Positions 4,574 through 63,730 of a stretch of DNA of 64,000 bases are shown here, in pieces (position 1 is the first letter of the stretch; each line of letters starts with the position of its first letter). Below the pieces are notes generated by a model. That model did no database searches and was not told the DNA's origin. It saw only the letters and a program-made list of their open reading frames with translations. Position numbers and translations under genes: made by a program. Source of the stretch: a bacterium (GTDB taxonomy: Bacteria > Acidobacteriota > Thermoanaerobaculia > Multivoradales > J023). The DNA is taken from positions 12,032-76,031 of the forward strand of contig JAAELT010000577.1 of the NCBI GenBank assembly GCA_024226315.1, written 5' to 3'.

Positions 4574-4615
4574 CTATCCTCCATGAAGACACGCGTATTC
4601 GCGCGGCGATCCGGC

Positions 4616-5236: not shown

Positions 5237-5285
5237 GAGTCTCCAGACTGCCCTCCAGACTGCGACTCGTTTTCAGTCGCCGTCT

Positions 5286-18952: not shown

Positions 18953-19057
18953 GCACATTTGGCCACCTTGATCCGCGCTGCGCGCCAGTCCCGCCCTGGG
19001 TTCGACGCCGTTAATCCGTTTGCGTCAAGGATCTCCGCGACCGGCGCCGGGCTCGTT

Positions 19058-34977: not shown

Positions 34978-35045
34978 CTGATAGGGAATTCGTACGAGAG
35001 CCAGTTCCGGATTCCTTGATCCAGGATTGCTATCCGGCCGCGCCG

Positions 35046-35274: not shown

Positions 35275-35361
35275 TGGAAACCACCGTGCCCCGTTCCCGG
35301 ATTACCCTCATCAGGCGGAGTTCGATGTCGGCGGAGTGATCATCGACGCAAACTTGGGTGG

Positions 35362-35841: not shown

Positions 35842-35843
35842 CG

Positions 35844-36278
35844 TCAGGAGAGAGTCGACTCCGCGATGAGGAGATCCTGCTTTGCGCCCTCACGATCGAT
35901 CGGAGCGTCGCGAAGGGGTAGGCCGAGACGCGAGAAGCGACCCCGCAGATCCAGCCAGGAGGTCCCCAGGACTTCTGCGGCTCGGGAGAGGCTGATGGCG
36001 CCGGACAGATAGTAGGCGAGGGCCGTTTCGGTTCGCGCCGTACCCGATAGACCGAGCAGCTTCGAGCCCTCCAGCCCCTGGCCCCGGTCGATCTGTGGGC
36101 GGTTGACGTAGTAGCAGATGACCGCCTTCAGGATCTCGAGATCGACAGGGTCGACGATGACGGCCTGGGGCTGACCGTGCTCTTCCACAACGATAGTTTC
36201 GCCTTGGCGAACGGCTCGGAGCACCCGGCCGGGGTCGCCGGCCAGCTCGTCTCGTCGGATGTGTCTGGCGGTTTTCAT
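35844..36278 (-). CDS. antitoxin: Phd/YefM-like N-terminus fused to UPF0175-type HTH C-terminus
   Basis: N-terminus MKTARHIRRDELAGDPGRVLRAVRQGETIVVEEHGQPQAVIV is Phd-like. C-terminus ALAYYLSGAISLSRAAEVLGTSWLDLRGRFSRLGLP is the UPF0175 motif. The upstream part of ORF-track entry 35844..36500 is out-of-frame read-through of the repeat. Confidence 0.6.
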   Translation of the reverse strand: MKTARHIRRDELAGDPGRVLRAVRQGETIVVEEHGQPQAVIVDPVDLEILKAVICYYVNRPQIDRGQGLEGSKLLGLSGTARTETALAYYLSGAISLSRAAEVLGTSWLDLRGRFSRLGLPLRDAPIDREGAKQDLLIAESTLS

Positions 36279-36351
36279 GGTCGTTCCTACCTGGAACGAG
36301 TGTAGCACCAGGTGGTCGGGGACCCTCAGGAGGGGACGAATCGCGTCGTCG

Positions 36352-38607: not shown

Positions 38608-39549
38608 TTAGTCGGCGGACCGCCTGTGCCAGATGTCGTGTTGCCCCACCTTGACCTCCCTCCGGAAATCCCAATCCGGGAACCTGATCGGAAGCGCCAT
38701 TTCATAGAGGCGGCTCACCAGTTGCGCCGAGATCTTTTTCCGGAGATTGCCGTAGGGATTAACTGGGCGCTTCTGCTCGAAGGCCTGCGCCTCGCCCGAC
38801 TCGCGTCGACCGATCTCCTGCGCCGCGTGAGCGTCGCTGTTCAGTCGGGACATGTGTTTCGCTTTGATCGCGGCCAGTTTCTGGCTCTCTCCCGGGAGAT
38901 CCAGCCGGTAATTGGTAGTGAAAATCGTAGGAAGGCGGCGCAGGTAGCGGGTGTTCATGATCAGGTAGAGCGTGTCCATCACGAATTCGGTCGGTTTCTG
39001 GGCTCCCAGCTCGTCCAAAACGAGAACCTCGGCCGACATGATCGGATCCAGGATCTGGTGCTTCGATTCGGCCGAGCTGGGGTCGAACGTCGACTGGATC
39101 TGCTGGATCAACGCTGTGAAATCGACGAAGCGTCCTCGGACTCGATAGCGATCGATAAGTTCGGCCAGCACCGCCACTGCTAGATGAGTCTTGCCGGTGC
39201 CAGGGTTGCCGATGTAGATCAGCCCCGTTTCTATGGTGCGGTTCTCGATCGGATCGAAGAAATTGTCGACGTAGCGTTTGCTGGTCGATAGCGCCCTCTG
39301 AAGGAGATTGTGGACGTGAGGGTCAACGTTGGCGGACTTGAAGTTACCAAGCCGGCAGTGCTGGTAGCGTGCCGGGATTCTGGCTTTCGATCGATACTCG
39401 TGGGGCCGGTCGCGCTTGGTGCAGTCACAGGGCACGGCGGCGCCGGCACCGCCGTCGGCGGTCACTTTCCAGCCGCGACCGTGGCAGTCGGGACAGATGT
39501 TGGGATCCGGCTCGACGATCTGTGCCTCGGAGGGCACGAACTGCTTCAT
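38608..39549 (-). CDS. DnaC/IstB-family AAA+ ATPase (putative helicase loader) with N-terminal zinc ribbon
   Basis: CPDCHGRGWKV...CDCTK Zn ribbon. IPARYQHCRLGNF. Walker A GNPGTGKTHLAVAV. Walker B VLVLDELG. Sensor IFTTNY. Confidence 0.65.
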   Translation of the reverse strand: MKQFVPSEAQIVEPDPNICPDCHGRGWKVTADGGAGAAVPCDCTKRDRPHEYRSKARIPARYQHCRLGNFKSANVDPHVHNLLQRALSTSKRYVDNFFDPIENRTIETGLIYIGNPGTGKTHLAVAVLAELIDRYRVRGRFVDFTALIQQIQSTFDPSSAESKHQILDPIMSAEVLVLDELGAQKPTEFVMDTLYLIMNTRYLRRLPTIFTTNYRLDLPGESQKLAAIKAKHMSRLNSDAHAAQEIGRRESGEAQAFEQKRPVNPYGNLRKKISAQLVSRLYEMALPIRFPDWDFRREVKVGQHDIWHRRSAD

Positions 39550-49838: not shown

Positions 49839-50013
49839 TCATGCTCGAGATCGGGCGAACTTTTTGGTCTGCCATGGCGTCTAAGAAGTGTGAGGACAGA
49901 CCTCCAGAAAGAAGACGCGGCGTGGCGTAACAAACCCGCGCCCGTGCCGTATGAGATACCAGAGCACACACTGGAGCAACCCGCGAGGCTCCTTGAAACG
50001 TGGGGAGAACGAC

Positions 50014-51216
50014 ATGAGCGACACCACTTCGAAGAAGAGATTCCCGGCCGTCTCGATCATCGCCGGGTTGGTAATAGCCGCAGTTTTGGGCTTCTACGCC
50101 TTCGACGCCGCCAAAGCCAACGGCGAAACCAGCAACGACGACAGCGCCGAGGCGGCTGAGGACGGCGAAGAGAAAGACAGCGAAGACAAAGACGACGAGG
50201 GCGAAGACGGGGAAGAAAAGAAGAAGACACCGATCCCGGTCGAGGCTGCCGCCACCCTGAGCGGCCGCATCTCCTCTTATATCTCCGCCACCGCCAACCT
50301 GGTGCCGGAGAGCGAGGTCCGGATCCTCGCCGAATGGGAGGGGCGCCTGGCCAAGCTCAACGTCGAGGAGGGCGACCGCATCAAGAAAGGCCAGGTGCTG
50401 GCCGAGCTGGCGCGCCAGGACGGTGAGATCACCCTCAACAAGGCCAAGCTCAAGGAGTCGACCAGCCGTCTGGCCTACGAGCGCGCCGAGCGCCTGAAGG
50501 CCCAGGAGCTGATCAGCCCCGAGGAGTTCGACAAGATCGCGCTCGACCACGAGATCGCCGGCCAGGAGCTGGCCGAGGCCGAGTGGAAGCACGAAAAGAC
50601 CCTGATCCGCTCGCCTTTCACCGGCCGCGTCACCGAGCGCATGGTGCAGCCGGGCCAGCACGTGCGCCCGGGTGACGAGCTGTTCACCGTCGCCGATTTC
50701 GACCCGCTGATCGCCCGTATCTTCCTGCCCGAGCGCGACGTCCTGACGCTCGACGAAGGGCGCGGCGTGCGCATCGCCCTGCGCGCCGATGCCGGCATCG
50801 AGTTCGACGGCCGTATCCGCCAGATCAGCCCGGTGGTCGACACCGCCACCGGCACGGTGAAGATCACCGTCGAGGCCCGTTCGGTGCCGGCCGCGGTACG
50901 TCCGGGAGCCTTCGTGCGCATCGACATCGTGCGCGACTCGATCGCCGACGCGGTGCTGATGCCGCGCGAGGCGGTGATCCGCGAGCTGCAGAACGCCTAC
51001 GTCTTCGTCGCCACCGACGGTCACGCCGAGAAGCGGACGGTGACCCTGGGCCTCGAGGAGGAAGACCACATCCAGGCAGTCTCCGGCGTCGAGGAGGGCG
51101 AGCAGGTGATCGTCGCCGGTCAGGGCGGCCTCAAGGACGGCTCGGTGGTCAAGCTGATGGGCGCCGAAGCAGAAGCCGAAGCGGGTGAAGAGCCCGCCGA
51201 GGCCACCGTCAGCTAG
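50014..51216 (+). CDS. RND efflux membrane fusion protein (periplasmic adaptor, HlyD/AcrA family)
   Basis: N-terminal TM AVSIIAGLVIAAVLGFYAF. Lipoyl/hairpin region RIKKGQVLAEL...EAEWKHEKTLIRSPFTGRV. Acidic Glu/Asp-rich linker. The stop lies 10 bp before the RND pump. Confidence 0.85.
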   Translation: MSDTTSKKRFPAVSIIAGLVIAAVLGFYAFDAAKANGETSNDDSAEAAEDGEEKDSEDKDDEGEDGEEKKKTPIPVEAAATLSGRISSYISATANLVPESEVRILAEWEGRLAKLNVEEGDRIKKGQVLAELARQDGEITLNKAKLKESTSRLAYERAERLKAQELISPEEFDKIALDHEIAGQELAEAEWKHEKTLIRSPFTGRVTERMVQPGQHVRPGDELFTVADFDPLIARIFLPERDVLTLDEGRGVRIALRADAGIEFDGRIRQISPVVDTATGTVKITVEARSVPAAVRPGAFVRIDIVRDSIADAVLMPREAVIRELQNAYVFVATDGHAEKRTVTLGLEEEDHIQAVSGVEEGEQVIVAGQGGLKDGSVVKLMGAEAEAEAGEEPAEATVS

Positions 51217-51226
51217 GGGCGCGCAC

Positions 51227-54200
51227 ATGAAGATCATCGAGTTCTTCATCAAGCGACGGGTCGCCGTCGCCATGGCGGCGATCGCCGTCTCGATGTTCGG
51301 CGCTGTGGCCTTCAGCCGCCTGCAGATCAACCTGCTGCCGGATATTTCCTACCCCAGCCTGACTGTCGAAAGCCGCTTCCCCGGCGCCGCGCCGGCGGAG
51401 GTCGAGTCGCTGCTCACCCGCCAGATCGAAGAGGCGGTGGGGGTGGTGGCCGGCGTGCAGCGCCTGACCTCGGTGTCGCGGCCCGGTTTGTCGCAGGTGA
51501 CGCTCGAGTTCGACTGGGGCCGCAACATGGATTTCGCGGCGCTCGACGTGCGCCAGAAGCTCGACCTGGTGCCCCTGCCGCGGGAGTCCTCCAAACCCGT
51601 GCTGCTGCGCTTCGATCCGTCCAACGATCCGATCATGCGGCTCTACCTCTCCGGTACCGAAGATCTTTTCCAGCTGCGCTACCTCGGCGAGGAGGTGCTG
51701 AAGAAGGACCTCGAATCCACCGAGGGAGTGGCCGCGATCAAAGTGGCCGGAGGCTACGAGGAAGAGATCCAGGTGCAGGTCGACGAGGGCAAGTTGGCGC
51801 TGCTGGGGCTCGACATCGGTGCCGTGCGCGACCGCCTGGCGCAGGAGAACATCAACCAGGCGGGGGGCAGCCTGTACGAGAAGGAGGCCCGCTACCTGGT
51901 GCGCTCACGCAACGAGTTCGAGCGCCTGGACGACATCCTGGAGACGGTGCTGTTCGCCGAGGGCGGCCGTATCGTCACCCTGGCGGACGTCGCTACCGTC
52001 GAGCGCGGCCACCGGCAGCGCGAGGTGGTGACGCGTTTCGACGGCGACGAGGCCGTCGAGCTGGCGATCTACAAGGAGGGCGACGCCAACACCGTGCAGG
52101 TGGCCAGGGCGTTGCGCGCCCGGCTGGAGAACGCCTCCGAGGAGCTGCCGGAAGGGATCGCCATCGCCGCCGGCACCGATCAGTCCGGCTTTATCCAGGC
52201 GTCGATCCGCGAGGTGCTGAACAACGCCGCCCTGGGCGGTGCCATCGCCATCCTGATCCTGCTGCTGTTCCTCAAGAACCCGCGCTCGACCCTGATCATC
52301 GGCGTCTCGATCCCGCTGTCGGTGATCGCCACCTTCTTCCTCATGTACCAGACCGGCACGTCGCTCAACATCATGTCCCTGGGCGGCCTCGCCCTGGGCA
52401 TCGGCATGTTGGTGGACAACGCCATCGTGGTCTTGGAGGCGATCTCCAAGCGTCACGAGCTCGGCGACAGCGCTTTCGAGGCGGCGCGCAACGGCACGGC
52501 AGAGGTGGGCAAGGCGGTGGTCGCCTCGACGCTCACCACCGTCGCGGTATTCGTGCCGGTGGTCTTCTTGCAGGGCGTGGCGGCGCAGCTCTTCCGTGAC
52601 CAGGCGCTGACCGTGTCGTTCTCGCTCATCGCCTCGCTGGTCGTGTCGCTGACCCTGATCCCGATGCTCGCCGCCCTGATCACCGGCCGGCGCGAGAAGC
52701 ACGCGGTCGCCCCGGCACCGCCGATCGAGGAGAGCCGCAAGTCCATGCGGTGGGCCAAGAAGAGCGCCCGCTTCGTGTTCGTCACCATGCCGTCGTATCT
52801 CGTATTCGGCGTACGCTTCGTCTTGCGCTGGACCGGTTGGCTGCTGGCCTTCCTCACCCGGCCGGTGGGCAAGGTGTTCGACGCTGGCATGGGCGTGCTG
52901 TCGTCCCTCTACCCCAAGACCCTGCGTTGGGCGCTGGGCGCCCGCGGCACGGTGCTGGCGGTGGCGGTCCTGGCGTTCGCCGGCGCCGTCTGGCTGGTGC
53001 CGACCCTCGGGCTCGACCTGATCCCGACCCTGTCGCAGGGCGAGTTCAGCTTCCGCGTCGAGCTGCCGGAAGGCACGCCTCTTCCGGCCACCGACCGCTT
53101 CATCGACGACGTGCAGACGGTGCTCGCAGGCGACGAGCGCATCGAGTCGTTCTCATCGATCACCGGCGGCGCCGGCTTGTCGCTGTCGAACACCGGCACC
53201 GAGGGCGAGAACGTCGCCCGCATCCAGGTGCGGATGAAGTCGGGCACCACCGCGGCCCAAGAGCAGGCGGTCGCCGCCAACCTGCGCGAGCGGCTCGAGG
53301 GCGCCGCCGAGGCGCACTTCAAGTTCGAACGGCCGTCGGTCTTCACCTTCCGTACGCCGGTCGAGGTGGAGGTCTACAGCGACAGCCTGGCTGACCTGCA
53401 GACCGCGGCCAGCGCGCTGCGCGACCGGATCGAGGACGTGCCCGGCGTGGTCGACCTCGAGTCCTCCGCCGAGCTCGGCAACCCCGAGCTGCAGGTGACC
53501 TTCAACCGCGAGCAGCTGGTGCAGCTGGGCCTGGATCTCAGCCAGGTCGCCGCCACCGTGCGCAACAAGATTCAGGGCGACGTCGCCACCCGATTCACCG
53601 AAGGAGATCGTGAGATCGACATCCTGGTGCGCTCGATGGAGGCCGGAGAGGCGACCGTCGACCAGGTCGGTGACCTGATCATCGGTCAGCGCGAGGTGGG
53701 TGGCTCACGGATGATCACCGAGCGCACCCAGTTCGGCATCCTGGTGGACCGCGAGATCGCCACCGGCCGCGCCCAGAGCGTGCCGATCCGGCTCAAGTCG
53801 GTGGCCGACATCAAGCTGGTGGACGGCCCGAGTGAAATCCGTAGGATCGGCCAGAAGCGCGCGGCGGTGATCTCGGGCAACCTCGCCGGCCGTGACATGG
53901 GCGCCGTGGCCGTCGACCTCGAGCGCACCATTCGCGACGAGGCCCTGCCGCTCTCCGCCACCGCCGAGGTAGGCGGCCAGCAAGAGGAGATGGCGCGCTC
54001 GATCCGCTCGCTGCTGATGGCCCTGGCGCTGGCGATCTTCCTCGTCTACCTGGTGATGGCCTCGCTGTTCGAATCGTTCCTGCATCCCTTCGTGATCATC
54101 TTCACCCTGCCCCTGGCGGCGATCGGCGTGATCGTTTCGCTGGCCGCCACCGGTAATACCGTCAACGTCGTCGCCCTGATCGGCGCGGTGATGTTGGCCG

Positions 54201-54586
54201 GGATCGTGGTCAACAACGCCATCGTGCTGATCGACGCGGTCAACCGGTTGCGGCGCGAGGAGGGCCTGTCCAAGCACGAGGCCCTGATCGAGGCCGGCTC
54301 GCGGCGCCTGCGGCCGATCCTGATGACCTCGGCGACCACCATCTTCGGCCTGCTGCCGATGGCCATGGGTCTGGGCGAGGGCGCCGAGCTGCGGGCGCCG
54401 CTGGCGATCACCGTCGTCGGCGGTCTGGCGATGGCCACGCTGTTGACGCTGATCGTCATCCCGGTGGTCTACTCGTTGCTCGACCGCACGGTGATGGTGG
54501 CGGACGAAGCGGCCCGGACCACGCCGACGGGCGATCAGGCGCCGCGCCTCGGCGCGGTCGCAAAACCCGCCGAGGCGGCGGGGTAG
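51227..54586 (+). CDS. RND efflux transporter permease (AcrB/HAE1 family), first of tandem pair (MdtB-like)
   Basis: MKIIEFFIKRRVAVAMAAIAVSMFGAVAFSRLQINLLPDISYP is the typical N-terminus. 12 TM helices and two large periplasmic loops. About 1119 aa. Confidence 0.9.
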   Translation: MKIIEFFIKRRVAVAMAAIAVSMFGAVAFSRLQINLLPDISYPSLTVESRFPGAAPAEVESLLTRQIEEAVGVVAGVQRLTSVSRPGLSQVTLEFDWGRNMDFAALDVRQKLDLVPLPRESSKPVLLRFDPSNDPIMRLYLSGTEDLFQLRYLGEEVLKKDLESTEGVAAIKVAGGYEEEIQVQVDEGKLALLGLDIGAVRDRLAQENINQAGGSLYEKEARYLVRSRNEFERLDDILETVLFAEGGRIVTLADVATVERGHRQREVVTRFDGDEAVELAIYKEGDANTVQVARALRARLENASEELPEGIAIAAGTDQSGFIQASIREVLNNAALGGAIAILILLLFLKNPRSTLIIGVSIPLSVIATFFLMYQTGTSLNIMSLGGLALGIGMLVDNAIVVLEAISKRHELGDSAFEAARNGTAEVGKAVVASTLTTVAVFVPVVFLQGVAAQLFRDQALTVSFSLIASLVVSLTLIPMLAALITGRREKHAVAPAPPIEESRKSMRWAKKSARFVFVTMPSYLVFGVRFVLRWTGWLLAFLTRPVGKVFDAGMGVLSSLYPKTLRWALGARGTVLAVAVLAFAGAVWLVPTLGLDLIPTLSQGEFSFRVELPEGTPLPATDRFIDDVQTVLAGDERIESFSSITGGAGLSLSNTGTEGENVARIQVRMKSGTTAAQEQAVAANLRERLEGAAEAHFKFERPSVFTFRTPVEVEVYSDSLADLQTAASALRDRIEDVPGVVDLESSAELGNPELQVTFNREQLVQLGLDLSQVAATVRNKIQGDVATRFTEGDREIDILVRSMEAGEATVDQVGDLIIGQREVGGSRMITERTQFGILVDREIATGRAQSVPIRLKSVADIKLVDGPSEIRRIGQKRAAVISGNLAGRDMGAVAVDLERTIRDEALPLSATAEVGGQQEEMARSIRSLLMALALAIFLVYLVMASLFESFLHPFVIIFTLPLAAIGVIVSLAATGNTVNVVALIGAVMLAGIVVNNAIVLIDAVNRLRREEGLSKHEALIEAGSRRLRPILMTSATTIFGLLPMAMGLGEGAELRAPLAITVVGGLAMATLLTLIVIPVVYSLLDRTVMVADEAARTTPTGDQAPRLGAVAKPAEAAG

Positions 54587-54601: not shown

Positions 54602-57600
54602 ATGAATCCCGCTTCCCTCGCCGTTCGCCGCCCGATCACCACCGCCATGCTGCTGCTCAGCATCCTGCTGTTCGGCGGCATCGCGCTCACGCGCCTGCCG
54701 GTGGAGTTCCTGCCCGAAGTCGACATCCCGTTCATCGCCGTCGAGATCCCCTACGACAACACCAACCCGGCGCAGGTCGAGCGCGAGATCACCAAGCCGG
54801 TGGAGGAGATCCTGGCGACGCTGCCCGGCATCAAGCGGCTGGGCTCGGACTCCAACGCCGACGGCGCCTTCATCTTCCTGGAGTTCAACTGGGGCCACGA
54901 CCTCGACATCGTGCGCATGCAGGTGTCGGAGAAGATGGACCAGGTCGAGGGTGAGCTGCCCGAGCAGATCGGCGAGATCCGGATCTTCTCCTTCAACAGC
55001 TCCGACATCCCGGTAGTCGAGGCGCGCATCTCGGCCGAGGGCGTCGACATGTCGGAGAACTACCAGCTGCTCGAGGCCCGGGTGCTCAACCGCATCCGGC
55101 GCATCCCGGGCGTCGCCAAGGTCGAGCTCGACGGCGTCGAGCCGCGCGAGATCTTCGTCGAGCTGGTGCTCGACAAGGTCAAGGAGCACGGCGTCGACGT
55201 CGGCGAGCTGATCCAGTTGCTGAACGGTGCGTCTTCCAACCTGGTACTGGGCGAGGTCCAGGACGGAGGCCTGCGCTACACCGCCCGCGCCCTGGGCTCG
55301 TTCGAGAGCGTCCAGGAGCTGCGCGAGCTGGTGATCGACGAGCGCGGCCTGCGCCTGGCCGACATCGCCGAGATCAGTTACGAGGAGCCGCCGATCCGCT
55401 ACGGCCGGCACCTGAACCGCAAAGACGCCGTCGCCCTGACCGTGTTCAAGGAGTCCACCGCCAACACCGTCGAGGTGGTCAACGCGGTGATGGGCGTGAT
55501 CGAGAACGACATCGACGGCGACCCCCTGCTGCAGGGCGTCAGCCTGTTCGTGTGGCAGAACCAGGCCGAGCAGATCACGGGCGCCCTCAACGGCCTGACC
55601 CGCGCCGGCTTGATCGGCGCCCTGCTCGCCGTCCTGGTGCTCTACTTCTTCCTGCGCCGCCTTGGCTCGACGCTGATCGTCTCCATGTCGATTCCGTTCT
55701 CGATCATCGCCGCCTGCGGCGTGATGTATTTCATGGGCAAGACCCTGAACGTGCTGTCGATGATGGGATTGATGCTGGGCGTCGGCATGCTGGTCGACAA
55801 CGCCATCGTCATCCTGGAATCGATCGACCGCACCAAGCGCAGCGAGCCGGACCCGAAGAAGGCCGCGCTGAAAGGCACCAAGAGCGTCTCGATGGCGGTC
55901 ATCGCCTCGACCGCGACGTCGCTGATCGTCTTCCTGCCGCTGATCGTTGGGGGCGAGTCCGAGCTCACCGTCTGGCTCGGCGAGGTGGGCATCGCCATCG
56001 CCCTGGCGCTGGTCTGCTCGCTGGTCTCGTCACTGACCCTGATCCCGCTGATGACCAGCCGCTTCCTGCCGGCCGGCAAGTCGAAGCCGATTCCGCTGAT
56101 GGCCCGCACCGAAGACCGCTACGTGCATCTGCTGCACTGGACGCTGCGGCACAAGCTGCGGACCTTCCTGCTGATCGTCGGCGGCGCCGGCTTCGGCTTC
56201 CTGCCGTTCTTCGCCGGCTGGGTGGACATGAGCCAGTTCTCCGGCGCGGTCAACGAGCGCCTCTACCTGGACTACGAGTTCACCGACTTCGTCTACAAGT
56301 CCCAGGCCGAGGACGTGGTCGACGTCGTCGAGCAGCACCTCGAGCCACAGCTCGAGGAGCTGGGCGTCGCCTCGATGTACAGCTTCTACACCTCCAACCG
56401 GGCCGGCACCACGTTGACCCTGGCGCGCAAGGACCTGGGCGACAAGGAGGTCAAGAAGCTGCGCCAGAAGATCCGCGACGGCCTGCCCGAGATCCCGGGC
56501 GTCAAGCTGGCGTTCTTCGAGGACGCTGACTCGGGCGGTGGCTCGACCTACTTCTCGGTCAACTTCTTCGGCCAGGATTCAGGCGTGCTGGCGAAGTTCG
56601 GCGACGAGGCCAAGCGGCGGCTCGAGACCGTCGAGGGCGTGCAGGACATCACCACTTCGTTCGGCAAGAGCCGCAAGGAGATCCAGGTTCAGGTCGACCG
56701 CGACAAAGCGGCGCGCTTAGGGCTGACCGCCCAGGAGGTGGCCGACACCTTCTCCTTCACCCTCGGCAGCTTCCGCCTGCCGCGCTTCAACGACGGCAAG
56801 CGCGAGGTGGAGACCTCGCTCGGGCTGCGCATCGTCGACCGCGAGAACCTGGCGGACCTCAAGGAGATCCCGTTCCGTGACGTCGACGGCCGGCCGGTGA
56901 CCCTGGGCGACGTCGCCACCTTCGAGGTGGTGGAGAAGCCCGAGGAGATCGAGCGCCAGGACCGCAAGGTGCGCGCCGCGGTGCGGGCCACCTACGAGGG
57001 CGAGAACTGGGACGAGGCGCGCGAGGAGATCACCGCCCTGATGGACGCCTTCGACCTGCCGGGCGGCTATTCCTGGTCGTGGAACCGGCGCATGATCGAG
57101 CAGGACCAGCAGGGCGCCGAGATGGGCGTCAACATGCTGCTGGCGCTGGTGCTGATCTACCTGGTGATGGCGTCGCTGTTCGAATCGCTGGCGCAGCCGT
57201 TCTCGATCCTGTTCTCGATCCTCTTCGCCCTGCCCGGCGTTGCCTGGCTGCTGGCCGCCACCGACACGCCTTTCAACCTGATGTCGTGGATCGGCTTCCT
57301 GATCCTGATGGGCATCGTGGTCAACAACGGCATCGTGTTGCTGGATCACATGAACCAGCTGCGCAAGGAAGGCCTGGGCATCGAGGAGTCCATCCTCATG
57401 GCCGGCCGCGACCGCATGCGAGCCGTGCTGATGACCGCCTCGACCACCATCATCGGCCTCCTGCCATTGGCCATCGGCGGCTCCCGTGTCGGCGGCTTGT
57501 TCTACTATCCGCTGGCCATCACCGTCATGGGCGGACTGATGTCCTCGGCGGTGCTGACCCTGGTGGTGCTGCCCTACATCAACTGGAACGTCGAGTTCGT

Positions 57601-57703
57601 GGCGGCGTGGATCCGGCGGCTGTGGCGGGAGTCCGGGGCGGTGCGGTCGCCGCGTCGGGTGGAGTCGGCTCGGCCGGTCGAGACCGTCGAAGTGGTGGGT
57701 TGA
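54602..57703 (+). CDS. RND efflux transporter permease, second of tandem pair (MdtC-like)
   Basis: MNPASLAVRRPITTAMLLLSILLFGGIALTRLPVEFLPEVDIP. About 45% identity to the upstream paralog in conserved blocks. The tandem arrangement is as in MdtABC. Confidence 0.9.
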   Translation: MNPASLAVRRPITTAMLLLSILLFGGIALTRLPVEFLPEVDIPFIAVEIPYDNTNPAQVEREITKPVEEILATLPGIKRLGSDSNADGAFIFLEFNWGHDLDIVRMQVSEKMDQVEGELPEQIGEIRIFSFNSSDIPVVEARISAEGVDMSENYQLLEARVLNRIRRIPGVAKVELDGVEPREIFVELVLDKVKEHGVDVGELIQLLNGASSNLVLGEVQDGGLRYTARALGSFESVQELRELVIDERGLRLADIAEISYEEPPIRYGRHLNRKDAVALTVFKESTANTVEVVNAVMGVIENDIDGDPLLQGVSLFVWQNQAEQITGALNGLTRAGLIGALLAVLVLYFFLRRLGSTLIVSMSIPFSIIAACGVMYFMGKTLNVLSMMGLMLGVGMLVDNAIVILESIDRTKRSEPDPKKAALKGTKSVSMAVIASTATSLIVFLPLIVGGESELTVWLGEVGIAIALALVCSLVSSLTLIPLMTSRFLPAGKSKPIPLMARTEDRYVHLLHWTLRHKLRTFLLIVGGAGFGFLPFFAGWVDMSQFSGAVNERLYLDYEFTDFVYKSQAEDVVDVVEQHLEPQLEELGVASMYSFYTSNRAGTTLTLARKDLGDKEVKKLRQKIRDGLPEIPGVKLAFFEDADSGGGSTYFSVNFFGQDSGVLAKFGDEAKRRLETVEGVQDITTSFGKSRKEIQVQVDRDKAARLGLTAQEVADTFSFTLGSFRLPRFNDGKREVETSLGLRIVDRENLADLKEIPFRDVDGRPVTLGDVATFEVVEKPEEIERQDRKVRAAVRATYEGENWDEAREEITALMDAFDLPGGYSWSWNRRMIEQDQQGAEMGVNMLLALVLIYLVMASLFESLAQPFSILFSILFALPGVAWLLAATDTPFNLMSWIGFLILMGIVVNNGIVLLDHMNQLRKEGLGIEESILMAGRDRMRAVLMTASTTIIGLLPLAIGGSRVGGLFYYPLAITVMGGLMSSAVLTLVVLPYINWNVEFVAAWIRRLWRESGAVRSPRRVESARPVETVEVVG

Positions 57704-57881
57704 GTTTCACTCGCCCTGAGTCTCCCAGCCCGAGAGCTCGTCTCCCAGCCCCTGCCCTCGCTGTAGGCCTCGGCCCGCAGCTCGGGCTCGTCCTGACTGT
57801 AGGGCACCAGTTCGCCTAAACGCCGTTTCGAACTCGTACGTATTGGCAGGTGTACCGGGTGTTCGATTTCAGGAGTCGTAG

Positions 57882-59999
57882 ATGCTCGATGAGGTGCTAC
57901 CGGCGACACGATCCGGCGGTGTACGCTGCTCGAAGGGGCGGTCTCACCGTGGCGGTCTGCTCCTCGTCTGCGCCCTCCTGACGCAGCCAGCGTCGGCGGG
58001 GGCTCGAGAGGAACAGAGCGCGCCAGTCGTGCCGCCCGCTATCCAGCACCTACACAGCGCCCATCGGCTGATAGAGCTCGGTCTTCCGGACTTCGCCTTG
58101 GAGCATCTCCTGGAGATCGATCACGAGGTTCTGCCCGAGAGTGGTCTCTCGCCTTACACCGCGCAGATCGCGTATCTCGCCGCGAGACTCGACGTCCTCG
58201 GCGAGGCGCTCGAAACTCTCACCGCGTCGAACCTGACCGCCGAGCGTCTGCGGCCCTTCGCCGCCACCTGGAACGCCAGGGCCGTGGTCGCGATTCGCGA
58301 CGGCCGGGTTTCCGAGGCGCTCGAGGCCTGGGACCAGAGCCTCGAGCGCGAGCCATCGTTCGGAGAGCGACGTACGATCTTCCGGTCGGCGATCGCGCGG
58401 ATCGGGAACACGGACGCGGGATACATCGAGGTTGACCCGGAGGTCCAGGGAGGTGCCTTGAGGTCGTTCTTGGAGACCTGGGGCAAGCGCACTTCTTTGG
58501 GGCTCGACCCCGAGGTGGTCGAGCTTCTCTTCGCCCTAGAGAAGAAGCTGGACCCCGAAGGCCCTGACGCGCAGCTCTGGGCCGAACGCTATCTCACGCT
58601 CACCCAGGCGACTCCGCTCGCCCTCTATCGCCGGGGGGCTCTGGAGATGGCGCGCAGGCAACCGGACATGGCCTTGCCCTGGTTTCTCTGGGCGGCTCAT
58701 ACGGACAAGTTCGCATCGGACCTGTCGCCGAAGAGTTGGAGATCCCTCGCAGTGGTTTACAGAGAGCTCGGATGGTGCGATCGAGCCGCCGAGGCGTGGG
58801 AGCTCGCCCTGGCGCAGGGACGGCCTCCGTGCCAGCCGGCGGCAAGGCGCTCGACGAATTTCGAGGAGTGCGTCGACTGGCACGACCAACTTCTGGCCTA
58901 TTCGCCGGAGCGAATGATCGTCTTCTGGCGCGGCAGCTGGCAGGATTCCGTGCCCGACCTGCACATCTGGAGGAGTCGATGCCGCTGGCCCGAGCCCAGT
59001 CCGTTCGCGCACATGTCCGACTCGTACGATTGCAGCCGCAATCGGCGACCTCGCCTGGCGGAAAGGCAGCTGGATCGCCAGGGGCCCGGGAGTTTTCCCA
59101 CTCGCCTGCTTTGCGCCCTGAACCAGGCGAAGCTCATGTTCCCGGCGCTCGGTCGTCGCTTCGACGACGAGCTCCTAACGCGTAGGCTCTCAGAGGTGCC
59201 CGCCGACCAGCGCTCGAGCTTGTGGGAGGCGAGGGCTCTCTTCAGCCTGCGACAGGGTGATGTGGACCAGGCGATGGCCTACTTCTGGAACGTTCTCGAG
59301 CACGATCCATTCGCGCGGCGGAAGCGCGACCGTTGGAGAAGGTTCTCGCGTGGTCTGTCGAGAAGTCCGGTGGCGCGAGGAGATCGGGTCGCGAGGTTCT
59401 TGCGCGACACGTTCGACCACCATGTGAGCACCGAGGAGCGGCCTGGCCTCTACCGGGTCCATCTCGCCACCCATCTGAGGAGAGTGGCTCCGAGCTCGAG
59501 CATCACCCTGCGCTTGGTCGACGAGATTCTGAGCTCGCCGTTGCCCCATGACGGATCCCTCTCGATGTTCCGGACGACGATCGAGCTCGACCTCGATCGC
59601 CCCGCGGACGCGCTTCCCCACCTGCTGCAGGCCTACGAGGAGCTCGGAACGCGTGAGCTCCCTGCCTTGCAGCCCGACCGGGGGAGGTACCGTGAGATCG
59701 CGGGGACGTTGGTGAGCGTCTACAGCCGTTTGCGTTGGTGGGATTTGGCCCTGGACATCGCGGCGACGCTCGATTCCGAGATTCCCGAGCTGTCGGCTCT
59801 CGATCCGGCGGATATTCTCGAATCGAGCTTGCCGGAACAGTGCCGTGCCCTGCGGTCGCGATTGGAGAAGGGACGTGGTGCCAGCCTGATTCGGACCGAA
59901 GGTGAATGGCATCGGGAGCGTCTGAGAATCCTGGCCGAGTGGGAGGGTGCATGTACTTCGCTGCGGCCGGCAGAGCGAGAATCCTCTCCCGCGTCGTAG
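57882..59999 (+). CDS. hypothetical protein (705 aa, N-terminal signal-like segment, helical/TPR-like). It is cargo of the first insertion module downstream of the RND gene.
   Basis: Long ORF with coding bias. LLLVCALLTQPASAGA is signal-like. It lies between the RND gene stop and the duplicated RND 3'-end copy. No family recognised. Confidence 0.5.
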   Translation: MLDEVLPATRSGGVRCSKGRSHRGGLLLVCALLTQPASAGAREEQSAPVVPPAIQHLHSAHRLIELGLPDFALEHLLEIDHEVLPESGLSPYTAQIAYLAARLDVLGEALETLTASNLTAERLRPFAATWNARAVVAIRDGRVSEALEAWDQSLEREPSFGERRTIFRSAIARIGNTDAGYIEVDPEVQGGALRSFLETWGKRTSLGLDPEVVELLFALEKKLDPEGPDAQLWAERYLTLTQATPLALYRRGALEMARRQPDMALPWFLWAAHTDKFASDLSPKSWRSLAVVYRELGWCDRAAEAWELALAQGRPPCQPAARRSTNFEECVDWHDQLLAYSPERMIVFWRGSWQDSVPDLHIWRSRCRWPEPSPFAHMSDSYDCSRNRRPRLAERQLDRQGPGSFPTRLLCALNQAKLMFPALGRRFDDELLTRRLSEVPADQRSSLWEARALFSLRQGDVDQAMAYFWNVLEHDPFARRKRDRWRRFSRGLSRSPVARGDRVARFLRDTFDHHVSTEERPGLYRVHLATHLRRVAPSSSITLRLVDEILSSPLPHDGSLSMFRTTIELDLDRPADALPHLLQAYEELGTRELPALQPDRGRYREIAGTLVSVYSRLRWWDLALDIAATLDSEIPELSALDPADILESSLPEQCRALRSRLEKGRGASLIRTEGEWHRERLRILAEWEGACTSLRPAERESSPAS

Positions 60000-60088
60000 G
60001 CTTCGCGGGGCGCGGACGCCCGATGGGTGAACCTCGGCGACCAGGACCTCGCTCGGGGCGCCTCGAATCGCCGACGTAATGAGTCGCC

Positions 60089-60338
60089 GGCCTCCTGCCC
60101 CTGGCCCTGGGCGGCTCCCGTGTCGGCGGGCTGTTCTACTACCCGCTGGCGATCACCGTCATGGGCGGGTTGATGTCCTCCGCGGTGCTGACCCTGGTGG
60201 TGCTGACCTACATCAACTGGATCGTCGAGTTCGTGGCGGAGTGGCTGAAGCGGCTGTGGCGGGAGTCGGGGGTGGTGCGGGCTCCGCGTCGGGCGGAGCC
60301 GGCGCCGGTAGGCGAGACCGTCGAGGCGGTGGGGTGAG
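60089..60338 (+). repeat. diverged copy (about 250 bp, roughly 88% identity, in-frame, with stop) of the 3' end of the second RND gene (original 57455..57703)
   Basis: The alignment is in frame. The copy encodes LLPLALGGSRVGGLFYYPLAITVMGGLMSSAVLTLVVLTYINWIVEFVAEWLKRLWRESGVVRAPRRAEPAPVGETVEAVG* against the original GLLPLAIGGSRVGGLFYYPLAITVMGGLMSSAVLTLVVLPYINWNVEFVAAWIRRLWRESGAVRSPRRVESARPVETVEVVG*. Confidence 0.8.
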
Positions 60339-60367
60339 CCGCTGAGCGCCTGTGATCGCGAATCCGA

Positions 60368-60607
60368 TCAAGCCTGCTCGTAGGCGCTCAAGAAGTCGTC
60401 TCTGGTGATCTTCGACTGTCTCAAGATGGTCCGGAGGGTGGACGCCTTGAGGCGGCGATGGTTGGGCATCGTCAGAGGCGTTTTCGTGCCGTCTGCATTC
60501 TCGCGAACCATGGCGATGTGGTTGCCTTCGCGGACGATCACGAAGCCGACTGACCCCAGCGCTTTGACGACCCGCTTCTTCGGGGCATCGACGGGGAACT
60601 TCGGCAT
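60368..60607 (-). CDS. hicA: HicA-family mRNA interferase toxin
   Basis: MPKFPVDAPKKRVVKALGSVGFVIVREGNHIAMVRENADGTKTPLTMPNHRRLKASTLRTILRQSKITRDDFLSAYEQA matches the YcfA/HicA consensus (GSH-like segment EGNH, trailing helical region). Confidence 0.7.
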   Translation of the reverse strand: MPKFPVDAPKKRVVKALGSVGFVIVREGNHIAMVRENADGTKTPLTMPNHRRLKASTLRTILRQSKITRDDFLSAYEQA

Positions 60608-60832
60608 CTAGACCGCGACGGCCATCTCGGCAACGAAGACCTCGCTGGCCTCGTCTTCTTCCTCGAGGACTTCTCGGCCGAAGGTCTCTACGTGGAACTC
60701 GATGGCGGACTTCGCATCCGCTAGCGCCTCTTCGTACGTGTCGCCTTCAGCAACCACGACTCCTTTGAGCCCGACCGGATAGGCGACATAGCCGTCGGCG
60801 TGTTTCTCGACAATGATCTTGATGTTCTTGAC
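60608..60832 (-). CDS. hicB: HicB-family antitoxin (UPF0150)
   Basis: GTG start preceded by a GGAGGAG RBS. VKNIKIIVEKHADGYVAYPVGLKGVVVAEGDTYEEALADAKSAIEFHVE. The stop abuts the hicA ATG. The ORF-track entry extends upstream without support. Confidence 0.65.
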   Translation of the reverse strand, partial: VKNIKIIVEKHADGYVAYPVGLKGVVVAEGDTYEEALADAKSAIEFHVETFGREVLEEEDEASEVFVAEMAVAV

Positions 60833-60863
60833 CACTGGGGAACTCCTCCGGTTGGAAGGCGTG

Positions 60864-61136
60864 CTAATTGCGCTGAGTAGCCCGGTGGGCATCGGCGAGA
60901 TCCTGCTCGAGCTCTTCCGGGGCCTCTCCGAAGGGGGAGAGGCCATAGCGACTCAACAAGAAGAGGAAGGTGAAACGAGGCATCCCGGCGAGGCTGGCCG
61001 CCAGCCCCGTGCTCAGCCGTCCCGTCTTGTAGAGCTGCAATGCCAGCAGGAGGGGAGCCTCCGCCTCGAACTCCTCGGGCTCCTGCTGGAGAGCCCACAA
61101 GACTTCGGATGGGTAGTCGATGGTGAGGGTCTTCAT
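60864..61136 (-). CDS. UPF0175-family small HTH protein (antitoxin-type) without adjacent PIN partner
   Basis: MKTLTIDYPSEVLWALQQEPEEFEAEAPLLLALQLYKTGRLSTGLAASLAGMPRFTFLFLLSRYGLSPFGEAPEELEQDLADA is a UPF0175 match (LS.G.AA.LAGM.R..F...L...G). Confidence 0.5.
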   Translation of the reverse strand: MKTLTIDYPSEVLWALQQEPEEFEAEAPLLLALQLYKTGRLSTGLAASLAGMPRFTFLFLLSRYGLSPFGEAPEELEQDLADAHRATQRN

Positions 61137-61458
61137 CGACAGAGAGCCTATCACCCCAGGGTGCGGGGAGCCCGACGGCTCCCCGCGCGGGGCACTGACT
61201 TCAGTCGGCCCAGAGATAGCTCTAAAGGTGCCGGCCGAATCGGCAGAAGTTGCGGCGGGTCGTCCGGCAGTTAGTCTTAGGGTCGGCTGGGGTACGCCGC
61301 CTTCAGCTGCTTGCGCACCTTGGCGAGGCCCCGGACACGGCAAGGCGGCGAGGCCGGATACTTCTGTGAGACCACTCGACAAGGGGATCTTCTGCACGAC
61401 CCCGGTCTCCTTGTCCACCCTCAGCAGCACGCCGTTTGAAGGGGCGGTCGCGGCCCAG

Positions 61459-61740
61459 AGGGTGCCGTCGCTGAGCGCGGCTGTACATGATGTCAATGCA
61501 TCCGTTGTCACCGACCGGGGTCAAGTCTCCATTCCGGCTCATCTCCGCAAAGAGCTCGCTTTGACCAAGGGCCAACGCCTTCTCTGGCGGAAGACAGGTG
61601 AGCGCGAGCTCCGGATCGTAGTTCTCGAGCCTCCGGCACCCCGTGGCGCCCAGGCCATGCGCGGTTTCGCCCGACGATTCCGCGCCGAGCCTCGGACGAC
61701 GGCCGAGTGGATGGCTGAGCTGCGGGCAGGCGAGAGCTGA
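61459..61740 (+). CDS. vapB: VapB-type antitoxin (AbrB/MazE/SpoVT swapped-hairpin domain), GTG start
   Basis: SVVTDRGQVSIPAHLRKELALTKGQRLLWRKTGERELRIVVL is the SpoVT/AbrB fold signature. Its stop overlaps the vapC ATG (ATGA). The exact start is uncertain. Confidence 0.55.
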   Translation, partial: RVPSLSAAVHDVNASVVTDRGQVSIPAHLRKELALTKGQRLLWRKTGERELRIVVLEPPAPRGAQAMRGFARRFRAEPRTTAEWMAELRAGES

Positions 61741-62207
61741 TGACCTGGGTGGTCGACACCTGCATGTTGATCGACATTCTGGAGGACGATCCGAGGTTTG
61801 GCGAGGCTTCGGCTCAGTTCTTCGATCACCACACCAGCGATGGTCTGGTCGTCTGCCCGGTGACCTACGCCGAGCTGGCACCCGCCTTCCGAGGCAACCT
61901 GACTCTTCAAGACGAATTCCTCGATGGTATTGGAGTCGACTGCCGAGAGGATTGGGTCCGGCAGGACACTCTCAAAGCGCATGAAGCCTGGAGTGCTCAC
62001 ATCCGGCGGCGGCGTGGCGGCCAAGCGCCCAAGCGGCCTCTGGCCGACATCCTGATCGGCAGCTTCGCCCTCCGCTTCCAGGGCTTGATGACTAGAAATC
62101 CGGACGGTTTTCGGACCGCCTTCCCCTCTCTCGAGCTTCGAGTTCCAATCGTCCCGGAGAACGATGATCTTGCAGCTGATCAGGACCGGGACGCTCCCCA
62201 GCCTTGA
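61740..62207 (+). CDS. vapC: VapC-type PIN-domain toxin
   Basis: MTWVVDTCMLIDILEDDP (first Asp). Conserved acidic residues lie in LVVCPVTYAEL and ADILIGSFAL. PIN-like size and architecture. Confidence 0.75.
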   Translation: MTWVVDTCMLIDILEDDPRFGEASAQFFDHHTSDGLVVCPVTYAELAPAFRGNLTLQDEFLDGIGVDCREDWVRQDTLKAHEAWSAHIRRRRGGQAPKRPLADILIGSFALRFQGLMTRNPDGFRTAFPSLELRVPIVPENDDLAADQDRDAPQP

Positions 62208-62277
62208 GCCACTCCGTGACGCGATCGTCGAGCTCGGCCAGGCAGTCGGCGTCCCAGGTGACCGGCTTGTCGCGGCG

Positions 62278-62343
62278 GCCGTCTCGGCAGGTGCGGGCTC
62301 CGCGTCGGGTGGAGCCGACTCGGCCGGTCGAGACCGTCGAAGC
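62278..62343 (+). repeat. third, short (about 66 bp) copy of the extreme 3' end of the RND gene, including stop
   Basis: ggtgcgggctccgcgtcgggtggagccgactcggccggtcgagaccgtcgaagcggtggggtga aligns with 57640-57703 and with 60275-60338. Confidence 0.65.
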
Positions 62344-62482
62344 GGTGGGGTGAGCGACGTCTGATCGAGCCTTCGCGGCCTCCCGAGCTTCCGCGACCGC
62401 TACGGGTTCTGCTAGACTTCCTCACGAAGGGTCACGCCGCAACGCGGTGTGAGACGGACAACGGCAGGACCAGGAAAGCATC

Positions 62483-63091
62483 ATGCCTCCATCGACACCG
62501 AGCCCCTCGACGGTCGCGTACCTGCACGCGCATGGTTTGCAGGTCACTCCGGAGCAGTTGGACGGCCTGGTCCAGGAGGCGATCGACCGTCTGCAGCAAG
62601 AGCTCTTTCGCTCCGATCCGCGGCGCGAGCTCTCCCGGGAGGAGATCGAGATCCTGGAGGCCGGAGGATTCGACCTCGAGCCCGTCGACCTGGGCGGCGA
62701 GGATCCCCTCGCGCGAGCGGCGGCGCTCTATTCCGGGCTGCTCAAGACCAGTCTCGACACCGCCGCCGCGGCGCGGCTGCTGGGAGTCGATCCGAGCCGC
62801 ATACGGCATCGGTTGACGTCTCGTCCGCCGAGCCTCTACGGAATCCGTCTCGGGTCGGGGTGGCGCCTGCCGCGCTTCCAGTTCGACGGCGAGAGACTCG
62901 TTCCCGGCATCGGCGAGGTGGTGGCGGAGCTCGATCCCGAGCTCCATCCCGCGACAGTCCACAACTGGTTCGTCTCGTCCAATCCAGACCTCGTGGCCGA
63001 GAGCCTCGCCGAAGGGCTGCTGAGCCCGCGCGACTGGCTGTGTCACGGATTCCCGCCGCGAGCCGTCGCCGCGCTGGCGAGGCATCTGTAG
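62483..63091 (+). CDS. putative Xre/MbcA/ParS-like antitoxin partner of the RES toxin (HTH-containing)
   Basis: Lies immediately upstream of the RES gene (15-bp gap). HTH-like AAARLLGVDPSRIRHRLTSRPPSLYGIRLGSGWRLPRF. The gene-order convention is antitoxin then RES. Confidence 0.45.
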   Translation: MPPSTPSPSTVAYLHAHGLQVTPEQLDGLVQEAIDRLQQELFRSDPRRELSREEIEILEAGGFDLEPVDLGGEDPLARAAALYSGLLKTSLDTAAAARLLGVDPSRIRHRLTSRPPSLYGIRLGSGWRLPRFQFDGERLVPGIGEVVAELDPELHPATVHNWFVSSNPDLVAESLAEGLLSPRDWLCHGFPPRAVAALARHL

Positions 63092-63106
63092 CCAGATTCG
63101 ACGCAG

Positions 63107-63730
63107 GTGCCCAGGTTTCCGGAGCCGCCGACGGACGCGGAGCTGGCCGAAAGCTCGCCCGAGCGGAAGATTCTGCCGGCCGGCACCCTGCTCTGGCGCG
63201 TGTACTTCCGGGGCGGAGATCATCCGACGTACTGGGATACCTTCCGCTCGTTCGGCCCCACGACCGGCCGGTTCGATCATCACCCGCCGCCGTCTTCGGT
63301 GCAGGAGCGGAGAATCTTGTACAGCGCCGAGCAGGGCCTGACCTGCCTCGCGGAAGTGTTTCAGGACAGCAGGATCATCGATCGAACGGCTCGCAAACCG
63401 TGGATCGTCGCCTTCCGCACCCGGCAGGACCTGACGCTGCTCGATCTGACGGGCGACTGGCCGACGCGAGCCGGCGCCTCCATGGTCATCAGCTCCGGGC
63501 CGCGGCCTCGGGCGCAGCGTTGGTCGCGAGCGATCTACTCCGCGTTCGCGGACGTCGACGGGCTCTACTACCCCTCTTCCATGGCGGCCAGCCGCCCTGC
63601 TCTGGCGCTCTACGAGCGCGCCGGGTCGGCGATACCCACCGCTCCTGCCTTTCACCGGCCGCTGTCGGATCCCACGCTGCTCACGTTGCTGCGCAACGCG
63701 GCGCGGGATCTGGGCTATGCCGTGCTTTGA
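63107..63730 (+). CDS. RES-domain toxin (NAD+-targeting RES family)
   Basis: LWRVYFRGGDHP...GRFDHHPP (R). ILYSAEQGLTCLAEVF (E). WIVAFRTRQDLTLLDLT (S). Order and spacing match the RES consensus. Confidence 0.75.
   Translation: MPRFPEPPTDAELAESSPERKILPAGTLLWRVYFRGGDHPTYWDTFRSFGPTTGRFDHHPPPSSVQERRILYSAEQGLTCLAEVFQDSRIIDRTARKPWIVAFRTRQDLTLLDLTGDWPTRAGASMVISSGPRPRAQRWSRAIYSAFADVDGLYYPSSMAASRPALALYERAGSAIPTAPAFHRPLSDPTLLTLLRNAARDLGYAVL

Follow-up and report, generated by a model that had tools for sequence, protein, structure and literature searches.

A 64,000-nucleotide (nt) stretch of contig JAAELT010000577.1, from a bacterium of the Thermoanaerobaculia (Acidobacteriota), was analysed here and is called the window throughout. 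It encodes an MdtABC-like pump of the resistance-nodulation-division (RND) type, and directly behind the pump operon lies an open reading frame (ORF) of 705 codons. We think it probable that the product of this ORF is an exported, non-enzymatic scaffold built from two tetratricopeptide repeat (TPR) modules, and that its gene sits in a horizontally acquired single-gene islet behind an MdtC-like permease gene. The islet is bounded by diverged copies of the 3' tail of the permease gene.

The ORF begins with an ATG at 57882 and ends with a stop codon at 59997-59999 on the plus strand, and an AGGAG ribosome-binding site (RBS) lies 6 nt before the ATG. It is a real protein-coding gene. This is because it has a full-length homologue of 45% identity (E = 2e-177) and its product adopts a confident fold in prediction. 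Thus, the extent, start and strand given by a first-pass annotation of this DNA are confirmed, and its reservation that the ORF might prove non-coding can be set aside on the same two grounds. In the NCBI record, which belongs to a contig of 131,934 nt, the product is listed as hypothetical protein GY719_34635. The first-pass annotation had also described the codon choice as slightly atypical. We agree, since the two adjacent RND permease genes have a GC content at third codon positions (GC3) of 0.93 and 0.95 and this gene has one of 0.78, and since with a codon-match score of 0.515 it ranks fourth from the bottom among 35 genes (z = -1.5). In this respect the gene resembles the toxin-antitoxin (TA) genes of the window.

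The pump operon, the tail copies and the blocks between them are arranged as follows.

49951-51216, plus strand: RND periplasmic adaptor (membrane-fusion protein, MFP), first gene of the MdtABC-like operon (TIGR01730 RND_mfp, E = 4e-69; HlyD_3, HlyD_D23).
51185-54586, plus strand: RND permease 1, MdtB/C-like (ACR_tran, E = 8e-244).
54602-57703, plus strand: RND permease 2, source of the repeated 3' tail (ACR_tran, E = 2.5e-184).
57454-57704, plus strand: in-gene RND 3' tail, the reference copy of the repeat (last transmembrane (TM) helix, cytoplasmic tail, stop codon and 1 nt more).
57705-57881, plus strand: 5' flank of the inserted block, carrying the AGGAG RBS.
57882-59999, plus strand: gene for the 705-aa exported TPR-family protein (ORF, TPR matches, homologues, AlphaFold2 model).
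60000-60087, plus strand: 3' flank of the inserted block, with no terminal inverted repeat to the 5' flank.
60088-60338, plus strand: RND-tail copy 1, 251 nt, 87% identical, a non-coding remnant.
60339-62273: block 2, cargo in mixed orientation.
60368-60607, minus strand: HicA, block 2.
60608-60853, minus strand: HicB-like gene, block 2.
60864-61136, minus strand: UPF0175 antitoxin, block 2.
61740-62207, plus strand: AbrB/MazE-like region and PIN toxin, block 2.
62274-62354, plus strand: RND-tail copy 2, 81 nt, 85% identical, strongest over the last 69 nt, ending TGAG.
62355-63730, plus strand: block 3.
62483-63091: 202-aa protein of unknown kind, block 3.
63107-63730: RES-domain toxin, block 3.

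When the tail was compared with the whole window by BLAST, it was found in three places only, namely within the gene and at copies 1 and 2, and each of them ends TGAG. Read in frame, copy 1 has a stop codon just upstream (60080-60082) and no start codon. An 88-aa ORF listed over it (60079-60345) is out of frame with the RND tail and was rejected as a gene. The 705-aa ORF is alone between the stop codon of permease 2 (57703) and copy 1 (from 60088), and the blocks beyond hold TA genes (HicA, HicB-like, UPF0175, PIN, RES), both as the first-pass annotation had it. Two properties of a cis-mobilizable element (CIME) are found here. The direct repeats on its flanks contain the target gene's 3' end (57454-57704 versus 60088-60338 and 62274-62354), and there are no integration or transfer genes of its own, as block 1 holds the TPR gene alone. 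Pfam matches to an integrase, a transposase or any other recombinase are absent from all blocks and from the rest of the 64-kb window. Directly after the RES gene, at 63814-63990 and so at the end of the window, there are at least 4 units of a 42-nt period, each a hairpin (ATCCAACCnACC...GGTCGGTTGGA). These units could be an element like the repetitive extragenic palindromic (REP) sequences or a boundary of the array.

Orthologues of the permease that are 60-78% identical occur in 66 species-representative genomes, nearly all of them labelled Acidobacteriota or Thermoanaerobaculia, and the closest orthologues of permease 2 (76-78%) are in metagenome-assembled genomes (MAGs) of the same labels. 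This assigns the host of the window to the same group. The adaptor gene is conserved, with 52 tblastn matches across the 66 loci. Neither the 705-aa TPR gene nor any other cargo gene of the array was found at any of the 66. Sequence beyond the permease gene is available for 62 of these loci, and a duplicated tail is seen in none of them. Behind the five closest orthologues, the ORFs vary by locus, and the TPR gene is not among them. Long tblastn spans that could have been taken for extra tail copies in RND relatives came from the tail of the upstream paralogue. Since the gene is absent from the 66 orthologous loci, has a codon usage unlike that of the pump genes and is bracketed by a diverged tail allele, its status as cargo, rather than as a part of the pump operon, is supported. 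The earlier description of the gene as cargo therefore holds. We found no sigma70-like promoter between the permease gene and the 705-aa ORF and one terminator-like site there, which is within chance expectation. Because of this, and because 8 of 10 family genes are co-oriented with their upstream gene, expression of the gene by read-through from the pump operon is plausible.

The predicted protein consists of the following parts.

57882-58001, plus strand: signal-peptide-like N-terminus, aa 1 to ~40, with a basic n-region, an LLLVCALL h-region and an A-S-A motif (cleavage site judged by eye).
58242-58988, plus strand: module 1, aa 121-369, with TPR hairpins, RPDxALPWFLWAAHT, GWCD and the Cys330...Cys367 hairpin, CxxWHD...W...W...C (HHalign, conserved columns).
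59196-59960, plus strand: module 2, aa 439-693, with TPR hairpins, RPxxALPHLL, LRWWDLA and the Cys654...Cys691 hairpin (HHalign, conserved columns).

Three TPR families of Pfam match above their thresholds, i.e., TPR_2 (45.1 bits, cut-off 27, aa 127-159), TPR_1 (38.6 bits, cut-off 27.8) and TPR_14 (33.4 bits, cut-off 23.5, aa 447-476), and TPR_2 is matched in 8 of 11 family members. An AlphaFold2 model computed from an 11-sequence alignment has a mean predicted local distance difference test (pLDDT) score of 82.1 and a predicted template modelling (pTM) score of 0.83. It replaced an earlier model from a 2-sequence alignment, which was unusable (pLDDT 49.7). The model is all-alpha and made of helical hairpins throughout, forming a solenoid, with residues 1-45 disordered. 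It has the right-handed superhelix of antiparallel helical hairpins that defines the TPR class, and a TPR-type superhelix fold of the 705-aa protein is thus shown at the level of a predicted structure. A Foldseek search of the PDB returned TPR superhelices only (Ctr9, OGT, Naa15), with template modelling (TM) scores of at most 0.25. The structure search against BFVD gave nothing significant, and PDB sequence profiles, NCBIfam, PADLOC and PHROGs gave no match beyond TPR. Sel1 (PF08238) had no match at E <= 0.01 in any of the 11 family members. The first-pass annotation, which saw a secreted, helical protein, agrees with the signal-peptide-like N-terminus and the all-alpha model. Its remark that there was no recognisable domain was wrong. 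It had proposed structure prediction with a Foldseek search and a look for TPR or SEL1-like repeats; the former gave a confident model whose matches are TPR superhelices only, and of the two repeat types the TPR is present while the SEL1-like one did not appear.

The protein is a tandem duplicate of a module of about 250 residues, because HHalign pairs aa 121-369 with aa 439-693 when the N-terminal and C-terminal halves are aligned (probability 99.8%, E = 1.2e-29). Each module closes with a unit of the form RPDxALPWxLWA ... LGW(C/W)D ... C-x36-C, in which a helical hairpin lies between two cysteines about 37 residues apart. In the family alignment, the near-invariant motifs are RPDRALPW(F/L)LWAAYT, GW(C/W)D and C-x2-WHD-x-L...W...DL..W...C, and five cysteines (C330, C367, C411, C654, C691) are near-invariant. 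The conserved cysteine pairs probably form disulfide-clamped helical hairpins. The N-terminus has four K/R residues, followed by LLLVCALLTQPASA and, past the putative cleavage site, by GA, and this layout of basic and then hydrophobic residues is common to all full-length family members. We infer that the protein is exported by way of a Sec-type signal peptide. Its role would then be that of an extracytoplasmic binding scaffold or adaptor, non-catalytic, for a protein or envelope ligand.

The family is new and very rare, in a very common fold class. A word-index search of 5.8 billion clusters gave 2 hits, the 705-aa protein itself and P0002, a homologue of 735 aa aligned over its full length as quoted above. 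Word-index searches were swamped by generic TPR words and returned only 2-3 proteins. When 1.84 billion representatives were searched exhaustively with HMMER, 10 clusters proved to belong to the family (E < 1e-30), the query's own included; most have 660-725 aa and two are shorter and fragmentary. Beyond these 10 clusters there were only weak, generic TPR matches (E > 1e-10). The 11-sequence alignment has no stretch conserved enough for a locus search, and two sub-alignments were used instead. Pattern-seeded tblastn with these found no relatives in GTDB species-representative genomes or JGI metagenome contigs. As this method detects only sequences that match the seed patterns, its negative outcome carries less weight than the exhaustive HMMER search.

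The family gene was inspected at 14 further loci, which amount to about 10 distinct contexts. L002 repeats the arrangement of the window, L004 and L005 are the same as L003, L008 the same as L007, and L079 the same as L006. The neighbours are as follows.

L003: Trans_reg_C regulator and proC/putA, on a 12.18-Mb chromosome.
L006/L079: AhpC and a PMT_2 glycosyltransferase.
L007/L008: TPM phosphatase and the aspS-rnc-mutL genes.
L009: alcohol dehydrogenase.
L010: RNase E/G and ureidoglycolate lyase.
L011: LodA/LodB-like genes.
L080: DUF423.

No RND gene is found beside the family gene at the further loci. A seemingly conserved pair of neighbours (genes of 316 and 152 aa in L003, of 324 and 149 aa in L006) was rejected, as these proteins have no similarity. 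Since the family gene is absent from the RND-orthologue loci and its neighbours differ among contexts, it is a sporadic accessory gene, and neither a pump component nor a housekeeping gene with conserved synteny. The first-pass annotation would have given up its proposal for a match to such a housekeeping family, and this is not what the contexts show. The neighbour proteins of L003 cluster at 90% identity or more with proteins of Thermoanaerobaculia MAGs, and the two hosts that could be placed, those of the window and of L003, are both Thermoanaerobaculia. At L012 (1664-3627) there is a degraded family gene in three ORF pieces. It lacks the N-terminal ~200 aa and is 74% identical to P0002, but its neighbourhood is wholly different, which is further evidence of gene movement and decay.

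Duplicated gene tails are not confined to the pump locus. The window has a second one.

35029-36613, minus strand: second tail-duplication locus, bracketing a UPF0175-like antitoxin and a DUF3368 toxin.

Here the last 263 nt (36351-36613) of a SpoIID/SPOR gene (36352-38595, minus strand) are repeated at 35029-35291 with 91% identity, and the homology ends TAGC. At both loci of the window, the homology stops 1-2 nt past the stop codon, after TGAG and after TAGC, respectively. Bracketing repeats are also found around the family gene elsewhere, in 4 of 9 evaluable contexts including the window, three of them strong. The family gene of L007 has on either side a stretch of about 200 nt that takes in the end of the TPM-phosphatase gene, a spacer and the 3' tail of aspS, which is convergent; a 68-nt core of the stretch is 84% identical, and there are indels elsewhere. 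In L011 (651-7422), the family gene is directly behind a LodA/LodB-like operon (lysine-oxidase type antimicrobial). The LodB-like stop region (19/20) and a 31-nt inner piece (28/31) recur in order right after the family gene, and the downstream fragment looks like a copy of the LodB tail with an internal deletion of ~360 nt. In L001, a 25-nt direct repeat (24/25 identical) brackets the homologue and splits what was apparently a single gene (1815-5538). The upstream ORF of 366 aa ends ...SGPDWAAQADLG*, and the downstream ORF begins ...PGPDWAAQAGLVW and carries the Lcl_C domain; the 366-aa N-terminal part and the 126-aa, Lcl_C/DUF1566-like C-terminal part both carry the 25-mer, which codes for GPDWAAQA. 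Because the L001 homologue appears to split its host gene, insertion is not always at gene ends. As a control, 216 other genes (400-1333 aa, 1.3 Mb of related loci) were screened, and none had a flanking direct repeat at E < 1e-5.

The repeats vary in length (25, about 200, 251 and 263 nt), and there are no terminal inverted repeats, the longest inverted match between cassette ends being 3-6 nt, nor do the flanks of the inserts have a motif in common. An insertion sequence, a miniature inverted-repeat transposable element or a similar mobile cassette was rejected on the lack of terminal inverted repeats and on duplications of 25-263 nt that are not of fixed length. An array of orphan tips as in Rhs or contact-dependent inhibition systems was rejected on a repeated tail that has no toxin domain, and an RNA element or tRNA target on a window with no tRNA gene or Rfam family match. 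Two other repeats in the window are of different kinds. A 93-nt repeat (16290-16382 and 19055-19147, 89%) ends each of a pair of genes on the minus strand, whose products have 508 and 529 aa; the second of these has a BNR-like match, and a 380-aa gene lies between the pair. The paired genes are probably paralogues and not a tail-duplication islet. A separate family of hairpin-containing, REP-like repeats of ~66 nt, including 6723-6831 and 16197-16262, has three intergenic copies with 64-79% identity.

For the TM part of the RND tail, the in-gene tail and copy 1 differ mostly at synonymous sites, and their comparison gives a ratio of nonsynonymous to synonymous rates (omega) of 0.13 at a synonymous divergence (dS) of 0.29, and for the SpoIID tail pair omega is 0.31. 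An omega of about 0.5 or more would be expected if one copy had drifted neutrally after duplication in place. In addition, copy 1 has diverged by 13% without a single indel across 252 nt. The low omega values and the indel-free copy 1 thus favor an origin in separate lineages, where each of the two tails would have been the end of a functional gene.

The most serious alternative is that the insertion itself produced the repeats in situ as long target-site duplications, for instance through template switching or the filling-in of a staggered break, possibly of the non-homologous end-joining type, and that they have since decayed. The TPR gene would then be a passenger of some duplicative insertion process. 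The variable length of the repeats, their unrelated sequences in different contexts with no common core and the lack of an integrase in the window would all fit such an event. So would the duplicate in L007, which spans two convergent gene ends and a spacer and has decay-like indels. Against it stand the omega values below ~0.5 (13 changes, P about 0.02 by our own binomial estimate), the lack of indels in copy 1 at its degree of divergence and the exact end of homology after the stop codon at both loci of the window. We regard duplication in situ as unlikely, while it deserves to be kept in mind.

We favor recombination with DNA from a related lineage. In this model, the TPR gene is the block nearest to the permease in a tandem series of integrase-less islets that were placed right after its stop codon, with a diverged allele of the tail of the permease gene as the boundary of each islet. 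A block would arrive by recombination with DNA of a related lineage that carries the same gene tail. The route could be a CIME-like site-specific accretion with a recombinase acting in trans, or a homology-anchored recombination, possibly of the illegitimate kind. The displaced tail would stay downstream as a remnant, and the new gene would be expressed by read-through from the pump operon.

Several observations weigh against this interpretation and that of the protein. Five of the 9 family contexts have no repeats. Where there are repeats, no core motif unites the different contexts, and such a core is what one would expect if one site-specific recombinase were at work. The cytoplasmic end of the RND tail, which is under little constraint, has an omega of 0.73. 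The test for the resident tail is split, as GC3 slightly favors copy 1 and protein similarity to orthologues favors the in-gene tail. A recombinase gene may also lie further downstream, as the window ends at position 64000. As to the protein, export and the disulfide clamps are both read from sequence features only, and no neighbour is conserved across loci that would point to a binding partner.

Two other genes in the window are typical of accessory or defence regions, though neither codes for a recombinase. One encodes an AbiEii-like AAA_21 ATPase (20946-22310), and the other, immediately upstream of the SpoIID gene, an IstB/DnaC-like AAA protein (38608-39549). At 11638-14690, there is an RHS-repeat protein (886 aa) whose 3' end lies, with the next small ORF, in a trough of GC content (0.53-0.60 versus ~0.67). 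A trough of this kind is typical of a polymorphic-toxin tip that has been swapped along with an immunity gene.

The first-pass annotation had proposed the 705-aa protein as a novel defence or competition factor, i.e., an anti-phage sensor or effector, or a secreted antagonist, in a defence/TA island. In favor of this is its position, since it shares the insertion array with HicAB, PIN, UPF0175 and RES modules. TPR domains also serve as sensors in some defence proteins, the L011 homologue follows an antimicrobial oxidase operon of the LodA/LodB-like type, and a TcdB/RHS toxin gene lies some 5 kb away from the L003 homologue. The protein itself tells otherwise. Four family members have no match in PADLOC-DB v2 or PHROG, the model is TPR only, with no nuclease, NTPase, protease or toxin fold, and an exported location is atypical for anti-phage sensors. 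The wider search for island-borne homologues that had been proposed gives the same answer. They are solitary beside housekeeping genes (aspS-rnc-mutL, proC/putA, alcohol dehydrogenase, RNase E) and outside defence islands; what recurs is the bracketing by repeats in 4 of 9 contexts, and in L011 the duplicated LodB tail on the flank of the gene indicates an insertion and not an operon partner. The TA adjacency in the window reflects a shared insertion hotspot, not a shared function. A defence or competition role is thus quite improbable, and position alone is no ground for annotating the gene as a defence candidate.

No better placed is a dedicated periplasmic accessory of the MdtABC-like pump, which would substitute for the outer-membrane factor or serve as an assembly scaffold and be encoded by a fourth, co-transcribed gene of the operon. 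The gene is on the same strand, 178 nt after the permease stop codon; the interval has nothing like a promoter, and its one terminator-like site is of a kind expected by chance. The exported protein would meet the periplasmic domains of the pump, and no outer-membrane factor gene follows the permeases in the window. However, none of the 66 orthologous RND loci carries the gene, nor is it downstream of the five closest, and no other family member is near an RND gene. Its codon usage is sharply unlike that of the pump genes, and a duplicated tail separates it from the rest of the chromosome, as for the TA blocks. The protein has no HlyD, ACR_tran or OEP match, and its fold is a solenoid and not a TolC-like beta-barrel. 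We therefore give the pump accessory slightly less weight again than the defence role and return to the cargo gene of an islet.

An artefact of metagenome assembly, in which strain variants were chained through the shared tail, is scarcely credible. In its favor, the source is a MAG contig from a complex metagenome, and exact matches between the tail copies run to about 24 nt. However, the order tail-TPR-tail-HicA is also present on L002, a 3.4-kb contig that was assembled independently, and the arrangement of L007 is seen again in L008, from a second assembly. The tail copies have an identity of only 81-87% and lack long k-mers in common at the junctions, and analogous structures occur in unrelated samples.

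The protein alone is of modest interest; what stands out is the insertion pattern of the TPR gene and the TA modules, and the latter are stacked likewise behind two different genes of the same genome. As a broader and speculative proposal, which we consider doubtful at present, the Thermoanaerobaculia may possess an undescribed cassette-type mode of gene gain. In such a system, compact promoterless units, such as this TPR gene and the TA pairs, would be inserted exactly behind the stop codon of a host gene that is expressed, with the 3' tail of that gene as attachment or homology site and no element-encoded recombinase. A stack of diverged tail copies would be left, and the TPR family would be a recurrent passenger, expressed by read-through. 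If this is a defined mechanism, it would explain how the large, little-studied genomes of Acidobacteriota take up small accessory genes. It would also provide a signature for genome-wide searches, namely a gene-tail copy that ends at the stop codon.

Known systems resemble the protein and the islet in part. Among bacterial extracytoplasmic TPR scaffolds, the peptidoglycan-synthase activators LpoA/LpoP, MamA and adaptors of the BamD/CpoB type give matches that are local (at most 217 of 705 residues) and generic. There is no shared sequence family beyond TPR, and the 705-aa protein is much larger, with an internal tandem duplicate. Its ALPWxLWAAYT, CxxWHD and paired-cysteine motifs are confined to about 10 clusters. 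The Helicobacter cysteine-rich proteins and Sel1-like repeat proteins are secreted alpha/alpha repeats in which disulfides clamp the helical hairpins. The 705-aa protein differs from them in that it has two clamp-like cysteine pairs about 37 residues apart, and not one per repeat.

For the islet, integron cassettes offer one likeness. TA cassettes are common in chromosomal integron arrays, and the units in the window are likewise compact, mostly promoterless, single-gene and stacked, with probable expression from an upstream promoter. In contrast to integron cassettes, their boundary is a coding gene tail and not an attC hairpin, and the cargo of block 2 is in mixed orientation. No IntI-like protein is encoded in the window, and the Rfam scan at gathering thresholds gave 0 matches there, with no dedicated attC model applied. 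A second likeness is the insertion of e14 or phage 21 into icd, in which the element brings a substitute 3' end and the displaced tail persists as a downstream pseudo-copy with mostly synonymous differences. Those are full prophages that encode an integrase, whereas the element in the window is a single TPR gene with no recombinase.

The third likeness concerns the accretion of mobile elements. Elements of the ICESt1/fda type accumulate in tandem by site-specific accretion at the 3' end of a gene, and the newest element adjoins the intact gene (PMC5704250). CIMEs are decay products of such elements that keep attL and attR and have lost the integrase and transfer genes (PMC5704250). Compared with CIMEs, the islets in the window are tiny (1.4-2.6 kb, 1-5 genes), their repeats, at 81-263 nt, are long as well as diverged, they have no known cognate integrase, and the same cargo family stands behind unrelated targets with unrelated repeats. 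Of the patterns described so far, tandem site-specific accretion with decay to CIMEs is nevertheless the closest to the islets in the window.

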